Shown piece by piece: positions 4,701 through 49,735 of a stretch of DNA of 64,000 nucleotides (position 1 is the first letter of the stretch; every line of letters begins with the position of its first letter). A program made the position numbers and the translations under genes. Source of the DNA: a virus (taxonomy: Duplodnaviria; Caudoviricetes); the IMG/VR virus record IMGVR_UViG_3300025389_001380, positions 3,818 to 67,817 of that record; one strand, 5' to 3'. The notes under the pieces were generated by a model, which saw nothing but the letters and a program-made list of their open reading frames with translations, had not been told where the DNA came from and made no database searches.

Positions 4701-5052
4701 GTGCCTGCGGCTCGCTTACCCTGCTCTTGCCCACAGGGTCCAGCTGCGTTTCAAATGGTGTTACGTAATCCTGCTGCTCATCAACAAGGATTTGTAGCTG
4801 ATCAGTGCTCTTGAAATTGCTGCCAGTGGTGTTGTATGCCACGGTTATCAGGGTGTTCACGCTGCCAGGATTGCTTGCATAATCATATGCAAAGGTAGCC
4901 AGCAAGTTGGCATCGCTGAAATTGTAGATGACAGTGTTGTTGGTCACGTCTGTGATCAGCAACAACCTCTGCTGTGCTATGTAACCTGGTATGGTTATCA
5001 GCTTGGCGGCCGGGGTGAAAGTGTAATATACCTGTGGTGTTACCCTACGCAT
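1750..5052 (-). CDS. Virion structural protein (T4-like/cyanophage-type, 1100 aa)
   Basis: Motifs PQALIDTDFEYGLQPTKWE, QTRRYFRYQSGKG, YIDYSWYGAG, YMRSGNLP and SHWGTSAIMDG, which I recognise from large myovirus structural proteins; AGGAG SD. Confidence 0.75.
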   Translation of the reverse strand: MRRVTPQVYYTFTPAAKLITIPGYIAQQRLLLITDVTNNTVIYNFSDANLLATFAYDYASNPGSVNTLITVAYNTTGSNFKSTDQLQILVDEQQDYVTPFETQLDPVGKSRVSEPQALIDTDFEYGLQPTKWETVGLTNNKPSYYVNFQTPLNVTDVLAINNSTLFAVNVGYTVGSGTVTSSGNTITGTNTVFTQQLLTGFYIYNSTYQTVGQVAAINSDTSLTLVSNVINAATGIWYWQNQPLPVPGQTMYIQDTNFSGANGSFIIENTNQYGNGLVANARVQYTGTTGSVFNPSATTAYQGALYTNSQYVLNGSVSNITFSGNQATFSFAQPHGLQVGNGIMVSNSNVATFNGSWTVTGFTNDSNVTVLLNATPATGSNVANVVPRTDIVISHRAFDGGVFFTTGNPVSHNVSVIRQTRRYFRYQSGKGIQMSTGTIFKPQIPVDSITANTTGIGALITIKTKTAHYLSAGANIYIGNTATISTGLGVTNPNGIPTGYAGTYIIQQTPDAYTVNVYASNVLASTTCTGIPGFGPNAWYGSKVRTGLFEQQNGLFWEFDGQVLYAVRRSSTQQIGGYVSVTQGSSTVTGITGPDGATTSFATQLEPSDYIVIRGQTYRVLQILSNTTMTITPPYRGASISQAQVSKIQDNRIPQNQFNIDRLDGTGPSGYAIDLTKIQMWYIDYSWYGAGFVRWGVRTVDGQIYYAHKLQHNNVQYLSYMRSGNLPAHYEVNNEVPETQLTATFANNATTLNVANTAAFPSTGGILLIKDYNNQEYVQYDTTTPTSFNVTIRGQTAGSIASVSTFSGNCNVTTSTSLYNNGIQPGMYVSGTGILNNTYIQKMTYGSPNTITLNQAPTATGSITLTTYAMANPNVSHTYSATQPIGIQMHAPFFTPQISHWGTSAIMDGKYDNDKSYIFIAGMVAPLSVGANQRAALMSIRISPSVQAGQGGTLGTKELINHMQLQPFAMDVITNGVFLINLVLNGIVLPPAGVPSTFQQVGGSSLAQVAYHPVGTLINGGESIFAFFVTAGGGTGYNDTPFDLTPVRDLGNSILGGGQNNTAGQQVYPDGPDVLTVVCQSLNPSSQQIQARLSWQEAQA

Positions 5053-5073
5053 CGTGCTCTCCTAACGCCCCCA

Positions 5074-8000
5074 TCAGTCTGCCATCGCCACGTTTAGCGC
5101 TTTGAATGGATATGTCACATTGTTGTTAATTGGTGTCACATTTGTGAGAATGCGACCGCTGAAATCCTGCTGCTGTGACGGCGCGCGGGCAAATGTTATG
5201 GTGTTTCCGTTGGTCAGCTTATAACCCCTGTTGAATATCGTCACTTCATTCAGATCCACTAAGTCAGGCAGCGTGATGAACGGTGCCAACACCGCGCCAC
5301 CAACTGCGATCAGCAGCTGCTGAGGTGTTGCGATATTTATGTTAGTAGAACCAATGCTGAGATTGAAACTTGTGGTGATACCATCAAATGCCGTGCTTAT
5401 GTCGTTCAAGACCAAGACTCTATTGGCAGTTGTTTGGAAAGTGCCATCTGGGAACACCAATGCTCCGCCGATGTTCACGTTGCCGCTGATGTTGCTGGCT
5501 CCGGAAATCGCTAGGTTGCCAGTGGCTGACAAGTTGCCTGCGAAAGATCCTGCGCCGCCAAATGTACCCGCTCCACCAAAGGTACCTGCTCCGCCAAAGC
5601 TGCCGTAACCTGTAACGTTGACATTGTTGTTGAACACTGCAGCATTGTTGACCGTCAGCGTGCCGCCTGCTGAGATGTTGCCAGCAAACACAGCACCATC
5701 CTGGCTTACCAACATGGCTGATCCACCAGCTGGTTTGAATATGTTGACGTTGCCGTAGAAGTTGCTGTTGCCAACTACCACGAAAGCTTGGTTGTTGTTG
5801 GTGGTTCCGATGCCCACGTTTCCAGTGAATATGTCACCGCTCCTGCGCACAACGTCGCCTATGGCAAAGGTCATGCTGCTGACGATCTCCACGTTGGCAC
5901 CAGCTGACAGCCCATTGACCAGGTTAACTGTGCTGCCGTCAGTGGCTGTGAAGTCTGTGAGATAAACCAGCTTGATACCGTTGACATAGACATCAACATA
6001 ACCAGGAGCATATGGTCCGTTGCTGAGGAAGGTGCTTTGGCCACCGCTGGCCACATACAGCGCTCTGCGCTGCGTAGCTAGTCCGCCTATGGTGCTACCC
6101 TGTATCCAACCCTGGAACTGCAGCACGCTGCCCACGTCTGGCGGCACTACAAACTGTACCGTTGCACCATCTGTAGCAAGGAAATCATAGCCGCTGATCA
6201 GCTTGACACCGTTGCTGTACACGTCAATGTAGCCAGGAGTGTAAGCAAATCCTGCGTTGTATGACGTGACGTTTGGCACTGTAACCAACAGGGTGTTGTT
6301 GCCTTGTACCTGAGTGGTACCTCCGCTATTCCAACCGGTCAGCTGTACGATAGATCCTATCTGAGGTGCAGCAGCAAAGTTGACATTGGTCCCATCATTG
6401 GCCGTGTAATCGTAACCCTGCACCAGCTTGACACCGTTGAGGAACACGTTGAGATATCCAGGAGCGTAGGTGAATCCTGCGCTGTACATGGTAACCCCTG
6501 CAGTGGTCACGTTGAAGATGTTGCTGCCGCTGATGGCATATCCCGTTGGAGCCAGCGCAGCAGTTACCGTTATCTTGATCTCAACTCTAGCATATTGCGG
6601 AGCACCCACTGCCAGCACTATGTTGGTGCCCACCCAGCTGTATGTTGATATGCGCTGATACACACCGTTGACGAACACCATGGTGAGATTGAGACCGCCA
6701 CCGCCGATGGTGTATGGATACACGCTGAACGTGGTCTGGCCTGCTGTAGCAGTGAACGTGAATGTCTGTATGTTGGTGTTGGAGCTGAGCTGGAGTGCAC
6801 TGTTGAGGAAGGTACCATCTGCAAACACGATACCGTTGTTCTGACCGGTGCTGTCTCCGATGTGAACGTTGCCCCAAACGTCTAATGGATATGCAGGATA
6901 ACTGGTTCCTATACCAACTGCACCAAGGTTAGCGTTGTATACGAAGTTGTTGTTGCCGCCAAACACACCATTGTTGTTGAACTGTATGTCGGTGTTGTAA
7001 CCGCCAGGTGTGCCACCACCCATGCTGGCTGTGTACTGATAAGAACCATCAGGGAAGAATATGCCAACGTTTCCGCTGGTGCCAGTACCTTGCAACACCA
7101 GATTGCCATAGAGATTGGTGCTGCCATAAACGCTGAGCACGTTAGCAGTTACGCCTGTGCTGCTGGTCGTGCCTATGCCAACATTACCGCCTAGGGTGCT
7201 GGTAGTACCACTGGCGATGTTTAGGTTACCAGCTGCGCCTATACCGCCGCCTACTACCAGTGCACCAGTGATGCTGCTGATGCTGGCATTGGTGCTGTTT
7301 ATGGTAACGTTCTGACCAAACACTCCGTATATGTTGCTGATCAGCGCGTTTACTGTAGCAGTCCCTGCGCTTTGTATGGTACCGTTGCTGTAGACGTTTC
7401 CAGCGTATGCCGTACCTGCTATGTTGAGGTTAGCTCCGCTGATGTTGGCATTGCTTATGAGACTGCCAACTGTCACAGTCCCGGCTGCTTGTATGGTGCT
7501 GTTGCTGGTTATCGCACTACCAATGATGGTACCGTTGCTGTTGAGCCCGCCTGCGGTTATGTTGCCAGCTGCCTGTATGAATGTATTGCTATAAAGACCA
7601 TTTACTGTGGCTATACCTGCAGCCTGTATGGCAGTATTACTGATCAACGCATTGACTGTGGCCGTACCAGCTGCCTGTATGGCGCTGTTGCTGGTTATGC
7701 TGCTGCCAACTATGGCTCCGTTGCTGTTTAGTGACGCAGCTGTGAATGCGCCTCCCTGCACGAATCCATTGCTGTAGATGTTGTTGAACGTGGCAGTGCC
7801 TGCGCCCTGGATGGTGCTGTTGCTGTTGATAGCCGCAGCGGTCAACGTGCCAGATGCTTGAACGAATCCATTGCTGTAGATGTTGGCACCAACCACTGTT
7901 CCGTTGCTGTTCATGCTGGCAAATGTAGCCGCACCAGCGCTCTGGATCACTGTGTTGCTGTACAGGGCATTCACCGTGGCTGTGCCAGCGCTCTGCATGG

Positions 8001-47753: not shown

Positions 47754-48557
47754 ATGTATTCAAACATCATAGTGGTATGTTATGCACCTGGTGCCAGAGG
47801 CAATGCCATAGGCCACATCATTGAGCTGAGTCCTAGCATACATAATCGCAATACTAAACAAGATATCGTGTGCCCCGATGCCAACGGCACCATGCACAAC
47901 ATAGACATGCGGTTTGGCCTTTGGCCAGATGCAGGACAGCTTGGGGTAAACATTTTTGCCAACGACCGCGGGTTCAAATACCAATTAGATCTTGATCTTA
48001 GTAGTATGGCCCCTGTCTGGCAGCAGTGCATGTCTAACCTACAATTCAGCAGATATGACCCAATACCTCTGCTACAAGGACTGCAAACTAGGCGCATAGT
48101 CACCGCTGACCACATACGATCAATACATGCTTTGCAGCTGATGCCAGGCTGCAGGCCTGTTGCAGTAACCGGCGATCCAGAACTGGCACTGCGCTTACTA
48201 TGGGCCAAATGGGAATTGCAGCCGCCTCCAAGATGGCATCATTGGCATGAGCAATACCCAAACACACCAATGTTAGATCTGCAGATAGCCGAGTACGAAA
48301 AAATACCAATAGAATCGGTAACCGACCAACTGCGAGCAGAAGAATGGGAATTCAGCTTGGAAAAAACACGCCGTTGGCATGAATACCATAGGACAGATCC
48401 GTGTGCATTCAGTTTGGATTTCCAATCACTGTTTGATCAGGACACAAGCTACGAAACATATCACAAAATGGTGGATGCTCTAGAATTGGAACCAAACTGG
48501 ACAGCAGTCAGCCAGTTCATCGACGTGTATAATGCAGCTCAACCAAAGCACTTGTGA
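47754..48557 (+). CDS. Hypothetical protein, possible sulfotransferase-like P-loop fold (267 aa)
   Basis: N-terminal IIVVCYAPGARGNAIGHII loop. The family call is tentative. Confidence 0.5.
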   Translation: MYSNIIVVCYAPGARGNAIGHIIELSPSIHNRNTKQDIVCPDANGTMHNIDMRFGLWPDAGQLGVNIFANDRGFKYQLDLDLSSMAPVWQQCMSNLQFSRYDPIPLLQGLQTRRIVTADHIRSIHALQLMPGCRPVAVTGDPELALRLLWAKWELQPPPRWHHWHEQYPNTPMLDLQIAEYEKIPIESVTDQLRAEEWEFSLEKTRRWHEYHRTDPCAFSLDFQSLFDQDTSYETYHKMVDALELEPNWTAVSQFIDVYNAAQPKHL

Positions 48558-48604
48558 AAATCTCTGATTTATGTTATCATCTTGTATCGCATAGGAGATA
48601 ACAC

Positions 48605-48649
48605 ATGACTGATCCGCGCAAGAGAATGATCTGGGTGAGATTTCACTAA
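48605..48649 (+). pseudogene. Stranded 14-codon remnant of the original dpdL-like N-terminus (MTDPRKRMIWVRFH*)
   Basis: Has its own AGGAG SD (48593-48597); 10/14 aa identical to the start of the gene at 49349 (MTTPRKRMIFVQFQ). Confidence 0.8.
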
Positions 48650-48655
48650 TAAATA
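48649..48655 (+). promoter_or_regulatory. Late-type promoter ATAAATA serving the endonuclease
   Basis: Overlaps the remnant's stop codon; AGGAG SD at 48661 follows. Confidence 0.6.
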
Positions 48656-48672
48656 CATGTAGGAGTATCAAC

Positions 48673-49362
48673 ATGTATTATGTGTATGCGCTAATTGATC
48701 CAATTACAAATTTACCATTTTATGTAGGTAAGGGTAAAACTTCTAATAATAGACACAAAGACCATTTGTCTGATAGACGCGGAAAAGAAAATAGACTACG
48801 ATGGAAACATATTTGTGACCTGCGTAAATCCGGACTAGAACCCAGAGTCGATATATTATTAGAAAACATCCAAGATGAGAGAGAAGCATATGATCAAGAA
48901 TCAGAGTTCATTAGACAATATGGTAAAATTATTGATGGAACAGGTATATTAACCAATATAGTAGACGATGCTAGACCACCTTCATGGAAAGGTAGGATTA
49001 AATCTAAAGAACACCGAGAAAATTTATCAAAATCACATCTTGGTAAAAAATTGTCACCAGAAACAATCCAAAAAATAAGTGATACCAAAAAAGCCAACGG
49101 AACATACGGTATCAGCGGAATGGCTGGTAAAAATCATAATCAAGAAACTAAAGAGAAATTAAGGTTGGCCCGATTAGGTTCGACAATGAGCCTTGACAGT
49201 TCTGCTAAGAAGAGCGCATCATTACATGGTAAACCTTGGTCAGATGCCAGAAAGATTGCGTCATTAAATCAAAAAAAAACTGGTCCAATCAAAGGACAAC
49301 CTTGGTCGGAAGCTAGACGTTTAGCACAACAAATGAAAAGGACCCATGATGACAACTCCTAG
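48673..49362 (+). mobile_element. Free-standing GIY-YIG (LEM-3-like) homing endonuclease with NUMOD3 repeats (229 aa)
   Basis: YYVYALIDP...PFYVGKG...E.EA...E..FI..YG...G.LTNI, followed by H..ETK.K-type repeats; strongly AT-rich. Confidence 0.88.
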
Positions 49363-49735
49363 AAAACGTATGATTTTTGTTCAATTTCAAAAAGAAGGTA
49401 TCCACAAGTATCCGGCAGCACTGACGGATCCAGCATTGGCCACAGGCGACGAATATGACGTCAGTTTCTTGGGCTATCCACATCGCCATATCTTTGAGTT
49501 CCAAGTATGGATCTCAGTGACGCACAATGACCGTGACGTGGAATTTTTACAGGCAAAAAGATGGCTTGAGAAGCTATATGATCAAAAAACTTTACAGCTA
49601 AACTATCGCAGCTGTGAGATGATTAGTGAAGAACTATATGAGAAGATAATAGATAAGTGGCCAGGTCGTGAGATATGGATTGAGGTATCTGAAGACGGAG
49701 AAAACGGCTGTATACTTAAATGGGATGCTCAATAA
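49346..49735 (+). CDS. dpdL: QueD-like T-fold protein, DpdL-type (putative 7-carboxy-7-deazaguanine decarboxylase)
   Basis: LGYPHRHIF fits the LxxxHRHxF motif that I recall for DpdL; ends in VSEDGENG; sits in the deazaguanine cluster. Start may be 49349. Confidence 0.6.
   Translation: MMTTPRKRMIFVQFQKEGIHKYPAALTDPALATGDEYDVSFLGYPHRHIFEFQVWISVTHNDRDVEFLQAKRWLEKLYDQKTLQLNYRSCEMISEELYEKIIDKWPGREIWIEVSEDGENGCILKWDAQ

Follow-up and report, generated by a model that had tools for sequence, protein, structure and literature searches.

A GIY-YIG homing endonuclease gene that probably entered phage dpdL together with a re-coded gene start

How a homing endonuclease gene can come to lie within a phage coding sequence and leave that gene intact is the question raised by a locus in the IMG/VR virus record IMGVR_UViG_3300025389_001380, where a GIY-YIG/NUMOD3 endonuclease gene is found at the 5' end of dpdL. 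The stretch analysed, referred to below as the window, comprises 64 kb of this 67.8-kb record, which has a completeness rating of only ~13% and is therefore a fragment of a very large phage; a megablast search of the region against GenBank phages returned no DNA-level matches. Along the plus strand the locus consists of a promoter-like site, a short copy of the dpdL start (the stub), the endonuclease gene, a replacement dpdL start and the dpdL body. An assembly artefact is excluded, since at least 17 contigs, drawn from independent samples, show this stub-endonuclease-dpdL arrangement. A preliminary description of the window had proposed intron-less homing into dpdL and delivery of a cleavage-resistant replacement allele. 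An abrupt divergence breakpoint at codon 14/15, the loss of a tryptophan codon and a recurrent insertion point support this proposal, including dpdL as the target, and from the same comparisons we infer cleavage and immunity. We put at roughly 80% the probability that a mobile GIY-YIG/NUMOD3 cassette homed into dpdL at Phe13/Gln14 and supplied the gene with a re-coded start.

The stub (48605–48649, plus strand) has an AGGAG-type Shine-Dalgarno sequence (SD) of its own, an ATG at 48605, 14 codons and a TAA stop at 48647–48649 that is directly followed by a second TAA. Direct reading bears out the preliminary account of this element, followed by the GIY-YIG gene (for which Pfam scores exceed the cut-offs) and then by an overlapping dpdL start. 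Among relatives that lack the endonuclease (contigs are designated here by L and P numbers), the start of the uninterrupted dpdL gene of L204 is identical over ~64 nucleotides (nt) to the stub and the ~33 nt 5' of it, with the coding part of the stub matching the L204 native start up to codon 10. The stub and its ~33-nt upstream sequence show 89% identity to L003, which shares 34 of 42 nt with the stub itself. Where the native gene reads Q-K-E-G, the window stub reads H-stop. On the strength of these matches to L204 and L003, the resemblance of the stub to a native dpdL start is judged not to be fortuitous.

Comparison with the empty-site relatives, using blastn against L003, L203 and L204 together with direct reading, delimits an insert of 744 bp (48646–49389, plus strand). 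Homology to all three relatives ends at 48636–48638 and restarts at 49385. The insert is flanked by the 5-nt repeat TTTCA (48641–48645 and 49385–49389), so that the junction can be placed anywhere within these 5 nt, and the insertion point corresponds to codon 13/14 of dpdL (Phe13/Gln14).

The endonuclease gene carried by the insert (48673–49362, plus strand) is free-standing and encodes a protein of 229 amino acids; its open reading frame (ORF) is equipped with an SD, ATG and stop of its own and lies in a frame different from that of dpdL. The protein matches the Pfam families GIY-YIG (PF01541; 31.3 bits against a cut-off of 22.6, residues 1–85) and NUMOD3 (PF07460; 21.7 bits against a cut-off of 20.4, residues 124–164), the latter also being matched by the endonucleases of L108 and L210, as well as the PHROG family phrog_314, annotated as homing endonuclease. 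The GC content of the gene is 36%, compared with 51% for the locus. A phmmer search against PDB sequences gave an uncharacterised GIY-YIG domain protein as the sole match, and the best endonuclease match among cultured phages is at most 36% identical, which leaves no isolate suited to laboratory work. An alignment of seven lineages that carry related endonucleases contains 83 invariant columns, and the GIY-YIG motif columns (Y-x-Y, F-Y-[VI]-G-K-G, R27, H31, E, and N in ILTN) are invariant in all seven. The ratio of non-synonymous to synonymous divergence (dN/dS) ranges from 0.02 to 0.17 across lineages, which on these alignments places the endonuclease genes under purifying selection. A second, distantly related GIY-YIG-like ORF is present elsewhere in the contig (~28795–29136, minus strand) and shows 35% identity to the dpdL endonuclease over residues 2–135 (E = 7e-5).

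The interrupted gene (49346–49735, plus strand; phrog_17812) has an intact reading frame of 128/129 amino acids, which begins at 49346 or 49349, in overlap with the endonuclease stop, and extends to 49735. Sequence and predicted structure identify it as dpdL, which encodes a QueD-like T-fold protein, a QueD paralogue proposed to act as a 7-carboxy-7-deazaguanine (CDG) decarboxylase. In tblastn searches it matches the named DpdL of ACP17 with 51% identity (E = 3e-33) and that of phiST with 34% (E = 3e-9). The DpdL signature LxxxHRHxF, which replaces the CxxxHGH of QueD (PMC10516641), occurs at residues 41–49 of the window protein and is invariant in our alignment A3. An AlphaFold2 model of DpdL has a mean confidence score (pLDDT) of 91 and its best PDB match is E. 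coli QueD (4ntk; TM-score 0.66–0.70); a hhalign comparison of the DpdL profile with the window's own QueD was uninformative (probability 1.8%), and the fold comparison was used instead. The decarboxylase role of DpdL is unproven, and heterologous expression yielded no dDG (PMC10516641). The genomic context expected of dpdL comprises FolE, QueD, QueE and DpdA and lacks QueC; in the window, genes for FolE (phrog_2197) and QueD (PF01242) are located 4–5 kb downstream of dpdL, in a contig that represents only ~13% of the genome. In the AlphaFold2 model the beta-1 strand comprises residues 7–19; the first 14 residues thus include the first half of this strand, so that an interrupted dpdL would need a replacement rather than a truncated N-terminus.

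Such a replacement is provided by 14 N-terminal codons (49349–49390, plus strand; alternative ATG at 49346) that are embedded in the 3' end of the endonuclease gene, which also contains the SD of the new start. The stub and the replacement start share 10 of 14 residues, and seven of these ten are specified by different synonymous codons, as had been pointed out in the preliminary description; overall, 26 of 42 nt are identical. When compared with L204, the new start has no identical codons, eight synonymous differences and four non-synonymous ones, whereas codons 15–128 have 89, 15 and 4 in these respective classes (Fisher p = 1e-6), placing the breakpoint at codon 14/15. Nucleotides 1–42 of dpdL are only 57–64% identical to native alleles, which are 83–88% identical among themselves; identity then rises to the background level of 85–87% over nt 43–186, and over nt 187–381 reaches 98–99% to L204, L203 and L201 and 89% to L003. 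This zonation indicates that the foreign tract in dpdL is only ~42 nt long. A promoter-like site is also found inside the endonuclease gene (49193–49222: TTGACA, 18 nt, CATCAT; 10/12 matches), ~125 nt before the new dpdL start, the number of promoter-like sites in the region not being above chance. If this site is real, it would tie expression of dpdL to retention of the cassette.

The proposal that the dpdL allele was imported thus holds for the start of ~42 nt; it does not extend to the AT-rich 3' part of the gene, which is near-identical in empty-site relatives and gives no evidence of import. Similarly, the statement that much of dpdL is AT-rich applies to ~49529–49724 (35–38% GC) and fails for the rest of the gene (44–55% GC). 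The AT-rich block lies outside the insert (49535–49729, plus strand). These 195 nt are near-identical in the window, in L203 and L204, whose flanks are only 81–86% identical, and in L201, where dpdL is found in an unrelated gene neighbourhood. Apparently this part of dpdL has recently swept horizontally across different phages, a phenomenon separate from the foreign start.

Empty sites are represented by L003, L203 (P0004) and L204–207 (P0005), each of which has one uninterrupted dpdL gene; the IMG/VR contig L003 is 86% identical to the window in nucleotide sequence over 3 kb downstream. Endonuclease-free relatives had been expected to run from the native start straight into the residues KEGIHKYP, and this is what we observe in L003, L203/P0004, L204/P0005, P0009 and P0011 (the P0011 contig by gene map). 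None of these carries a second copy of the N-terminus, an arrangement that would have told against the proposal. The native dpdL promoter-like site, a motif match found by consensus scan (48552–48580, plus strand: TTGTGA, 17 nt, TG-TATCAT), has a counterpart 5' of the uninterrupted gene in L003, L203 and L204; in the window it now lies upstream of stub, endonuclease and dpdL alike. Native and occupied alleles also differ at one particular residue, a near-invariant Trp of native DpdL that is Phe in the window's replacement start. All 80 of the 80 IMG/VR relatives with Trp have no endonuclease within 4 kb, and every occupied allele has Phe or Tyr at this position. Of the best 120 DpdL homologues, 100 have the sequence IWV and 18 have F or Y in place of the Trp.

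The same layout recurs in six other lineages (L108/L109, L111/L215–218, L210–212, L213, L214 and L219), while in L221 and L222 a stub and endonuclease are visible before the contig ends. A first endonuclease search gave only relatives of 44–53% identity, which are located in T4-like contigs without dpdL, next to a gene that by eye we take to be recA/uvsX-like. The dpdL-linked relatives came to light only when the F-type start, in which Phe stands in place of Trp, was back-translated into a degenerate query; this placed an endonuclease directly 5' of a dpdL gene with the same F-type core in L108/L109. Endonucleases of the dpdL-linked lineages are 54–84% identical, and their identity to that of the window is 63% for L108/L109, 64% for L111/L215–218, 59% for L210–212 and 62–63% for L213, L214 and L219. 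All lineages have in common a stub that terminates at codons Phe13/Gln14 and the conserved TAAATAAACA(T) motif; all contigs that extend into dpdL also show a new start of this gene, overlapped by the endonuclease gene, with Phe or Tyr in place of Trp. The recurrence of this layout in six lineages, the divergence of the endonucleases and the purifying selection acting on them together indicate, at the level of sequence, an old family of homing cassettes specific to dpdL.

Several lineages appear to represent different stages of the cassette's history. L213 and L219 share one replacement start that is joined to different dpdL bodies, which places the right-hand limit of the cassette just after the F-Q-K-E-G codons. 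In L108, L111, L214 and L222 the stub is short, near-invariant in DNA sequence, linked to the cassette and adjoined by unrelated upstream genes. Tandem stubs are found in three phage backgrounds (L213 1283–1372, L219 9820–9917 and L221 11560–11653), where a native dpdL start truncated after Phe13 precedes a cassette-borne stub with the conserved AT-rich motif; this order would be in keeping with initial entry of the cassette by end-joining and subsequent homing within the clade. In L107 (2285–2415) an F-type dpdL start is preceded by a frameshifted remnant of the last ~55 endonuclease codons; the stub has been deleted along with the first ~150 codons of the endonuclease, and from its sequence we read L107 as a decay stage of the cassette. 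Separate from these lineages, L112 (2440–3300) encodes a GIY-YIG protein of 46% identity whose C-terminus differs and is rich in Cys and His; its gene lies ~230 bp 5' of a dpdL gene that has retained the Trp codon. Two degenerate copies of a stub-like left-end motif lie upstream of this GIY-YIG gene, which may belong to a side branch of different specificity.

The left end of the cassette in the window (48647–48660, plus strand) reads TAATAAATA followed by ACAT and matches the conserved motif found at this position in other lineages. A 25-nt left end is identical at 24 of 25 positions between lineages whose endonuclease genes have diverged to a dS above 1, and this conservation argues for a functional constraint, presumably as a promoter, hairpin arm or operator. 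The late promoter that had been suggested here is weakly founded: TAATAAATA at 48647 is no more than a motif, with no other exact match in the 64-kb window, and TATAAATA does not occur anywhere within the window. A T4-type late promoter is not supported, as no T4 late-promoter consensus is present in the window. A predicted hairpin (48652–48679, plus strand) with 8-bp arms at 48653–48660 and 48671–48678 would hold the endonuclease SD in its loop and the ATG in its 3' arm. Every lineage has a predicted hairpin that covers the SD or start of the endonuclease gene; that of the window is weak (z = -0.7), its counterparts in L108, L111, L213 and L210 having z-scores of -1.8 to -3.6.

From these comparisons we infer cleavage, the exact target, immunity, the donor and the expression of dpdL along the following lines. 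The mobile unit would consist of a conserved leader, made up of the AT-rich motif and a hairpin that covers the SD and start of the endonuclease gene, followed by that gene and, fused to its 3' end, a dpdL start of ~14 codons. After insertion, the promoter, SD and first 14 codons of the recipient would remain upstream as a dead-end stub, and dpdL would be translated from the start codon of the cassette, using the SD inside the endonuclease gene. The endonuclease would recognise the contiguous sequence that spans the M-I-W-V and K-E-G-I-H-K-Y-P codons of the empty allele, where dpdL is most highly conserved. In an occupied genome the stub would hold only the left half of the target and the new start the right half, with the left half re-coded and the TGG codon always lost, so that neither of the split copies would be a substrate and the genome would be immune. 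The two direct repeats would likewise differ too much for recombination between them to remove the cassette. Spread is envisaged through double-strand-break repair in mixed infections, the left crossover falling within the stub or close to it and the right one immediately beyond the F-Q-K-E-G codons.

A number of observations weigh against this scheme. No same-species empty allele was found, metagenome scans having given nothing or only the known L205 contig, so that recent mobility in the window lineage is putative; the nearest empty alleles are 81–86% identical in their flanks. Nor did we find a donor with a closely related cassette, the next endonuclease being 67% identical, and an exact 23-mer of the new dpdL start was not found in IMG/VR. 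The window hairpin is no better than that of shuffled sequence, and Phe or Tyr alleles without an endonuclease occur in L110, L201, L208 and P0074, which may be footprints of former cassettes or ordinary polymorphism. Some of these points would also be expected if the cassette were a fixed relic, or if the nuclease had been repurposed (for exclusion of competing phages' dpdL or for regulation) or kept for the sake of dpdL expression, and no longer homed. In favour of this, no near-identical cassette was found elsewhere, and the endonuclease is present in 17 of 17 contigs that carry this DpdL and reach far enough upstream; since the dpdL start, its SD and the promoter-like site at 49193–49222 all lie inside the endonuclease gene, deletion of the cassette would cost the phage dpdL. 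The low dN/dS, moreover, reports selection on the protein and not mobility. We regard this explanation as unlikely, because presence and absence among related phages, tandem stubs in three backgrounds, shared starts on different gene bodies and the decaying copy in L107 are hallmarks of an element that is still moving and being lost.

The replacement starts themselves raise a further difficulty for homing from outside. At the protein level the replacement starts of the window, L210 and L213/L219 agree with the dpdL clade in which they are found, which is not what simple homing across clades would produce. Agreement between stub and new start in the residues RKR/TSR is no proof of a local origin, both states being common polymorphisms within clades; the clade match in L213/L219 is longer and is not accounted for in this way. 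Clade-matched starts would be natural if the polarity were reversed, that is, if an endonuclease with a cassette-borne stub had landed upstream of a resident dpdL gene whose start was already resistant or became so later, the stub then being imported and the start native. The short, near-invariant, cassette-linked stubs next to unrelated genes in L108, L111, L214 and L222 are consistent with such an event, as are the last ~10 nt of the window stub, which are as similar to a cassette-type stub as to native alleles. The window stub is nevertheless contiguous with the native promoter and SD and forms part of the ~64 nt identical to the uninterrupted L204 gene, whereas the downstream start is only 57–64% identical to every native allele of the clade, with a jump in divergence at codon 14/15; the single replacement start on different gene bodies in L213 and L219 argues in the same direction, and we consider reversed polarity distinctly improbable. 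The two copies in the window are direct repeats ending at the same codon, which might instead mean that the dpdL start was duplicated in tandem on the spot and the copies then drifted apart, an endonuclease having entered between them independently. The 38% nucleotide divergence, confined to 42 nt beside sequence at background level, is too great to have arisen in place in the time that separates the window from L003 or L204, and the same layout with homologous endonucleases in distant phages makes this scenario very improbable indeed. It is scarcely credible that the endonuclease resides in a group I intron or intein, with the stub as a genuine first exon joined at the RNA or protein level. 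GIY-YIG endonucleases are often intron-encoded and the stub retains an SD and ATG, but only ~27 nt of non-ORF sequence lie on each side of the insert ORF, leaving no room for a ribozyme core, and a search of Rfam yields no introns at E <= 1. With a start and stop of its own and a frame different from that of dpdL, the ORF is not an intein, and a complete second dpdL start would be redundant. Homing of a cassette that carries its own dpdL start remains the reading that we favour.

By analogy, the closest precedent is found in the gene hybrids created by mobile ORFs (mORFs) in fungal mitochondria, of which the window cassette would be a phage counterpart acting at the 5' end; our literature searches, none of them aimed at that exact case, returned no phage cassette that replaces the 5' end of a gene. 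The mORF hybrids are known from atp6 of Allomyces macrogynus and from atp6, atp9, cox2 and nad3 of Glomus sp. (PMC3630166). As in the window, an endonuclease ORF is combined with a foreign terminus of the target gene, the hybrid gene is functional and the displaced native terminus stays adjacent, in the mitochondrial cases as a silent duplicate (PMC3630166). The copies also combine low nucleotide with high amino acid identity, at 63.5% and 91% for Glomus atp6 (PMC3630166) and 62% and 71% for the window. In contrast to mORFs, which replace the C-terminus, the window cassette replaces the N-terminus and so supplies a start codon and SD; its host is a phage rather than an organelle, there is no in-frame fusion of its endonuclease to the gene, and some dpdL lineages have a conserved cassette-borne stub and tandem stubs. 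The likeness is one of mechanism and not of common descent.

Among phage systems, the Seg (GIY-YIG) and Mob (HNH) endonucleases of T4-like phages, which move by intron-less homing, resemble the window gene in being free-standing, in having no intron and in their presence or absence among relatives (PMC2988022). They spread by break repair with co-conversion of the flanks, as we would expect for the window, and likewise have a hairpin over the endonuclease ribosome-binding site and regulatory signals for the downstream gene inside the endonuclease gene (PMC2988022). Unlike Seg and Mob genes, which are intergenic and cut a neighbouring gene (PMC2988022), the window insert lies within a coding sequence, at a fixed codon, and brings a substitute gene end; the window phage also differs from T4-like systems in having no T4-type late promoter consensus. 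Endonuclease genes inside a conserved, critical part of a coding sequence whose function is kept are known from Aeh1 nrdA/mobE, T4 39/60 with mobA, and gene 43 of Aeromonas phage 25 (PMC2988022). In those split genes two polypeptides reassemble (PMC2988022), whereas in the window a 14-residue stub would be discarded and a full-length protein made from the replacement start. A parallel may also exist with I-TevI, which is autoregulated through an operator that resembles its homing site and overlaps the I-TevI promoter (PMC2988022): the window likewise has a target-like stub directly upstream of the endonuclease and beside a conserved AT-rich motif, and this stub is conserved far beyond neutral expectation. 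The window stub differs in that it resembles the target by descent, and its regulatory role is putative. Certain prophages and genomic islands also restore the tRNA or protein gene into which they integrate, a substitute gene end being part of their attachment site. That integration depends on a site-specific recombinase and near-identical repeats, unlike the route proposed here, which is break-repair homing with unlike repeats.

The surroundings of dpdL contain further insertions. An ORF of 267 codons (47754–48557) lies between a gene for a 2153-residue protein and the dpdL promoter in the window and is absent from L003, L203 and L204; it represents a second insertion or deletion adjoining the cassette, and its stop falls inside the -35 hexamer of the promoter. 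Its product has no Pfam or PHROG matches and no IMG/VR relative by pattern search, and a protein atlas placed it with viral hypothetical clusters only, together with a weak sulfotransferase-like lead. Extra insertions near dpdL are also found in relatives, namely L204 (2259–3203, minus strand), L208 (3292–4212, minus), L213 (849–1283, plus) and L210 (2865–3458, minus, and 4818–5390, plus). L208 and L213 have HNH endonuclease genes near dpdL, L210 has a NUMOD3 gene, and ORFs of unknown function are located directly 3' of dpdL in L204–207 and L210.

It is possible, if rather doubtful, that these elements constitute a phage family of "gene-end replacement" homing cassettes, perhaps described here for the first time. 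Their target would be in two parts, with cleavage at the Trp codon and binding in the KEGIHKYP codons, and would be split between stub and re-coded start; the stub and the AT-rich left end would serve as a self-regulatory operator or promoter, as in I-TevI, and repeated homing would drive allele sweeps in a DNA-hypermodification gene, among them that of the near-identical 3' block found in unrelated phages. If this is the case, the question arises of whether 7-deazaguanine modification itself protects the target.

The locus would provide a third way for a homing endonuclease to persist inside an essential coding region, besides residence in an intron or intein and splitting of the protein, by carrying a re-coded spare end of the gene. 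It would also be a natural example of synonymous re-coding that serves both self-immunity and repeat stability, with occupied, empty, tandem-stub and decaying stages all open to comparison. The predicted target is compact (~40 bp) and lies in a conserved DNA-modification gene of thousands of environmental phages. For annotators the locus carries a warning: where a short "orphan" start or an unusual N-terminus lies close to an endonuclease gene, it may be the footprint of such a cassette. The polymorphism between Trp, Phe and Tyr and the mosaic pattern of identity along dpdL suggest that cassettes of this kind shape the evolution of the deazaguanine pathway.

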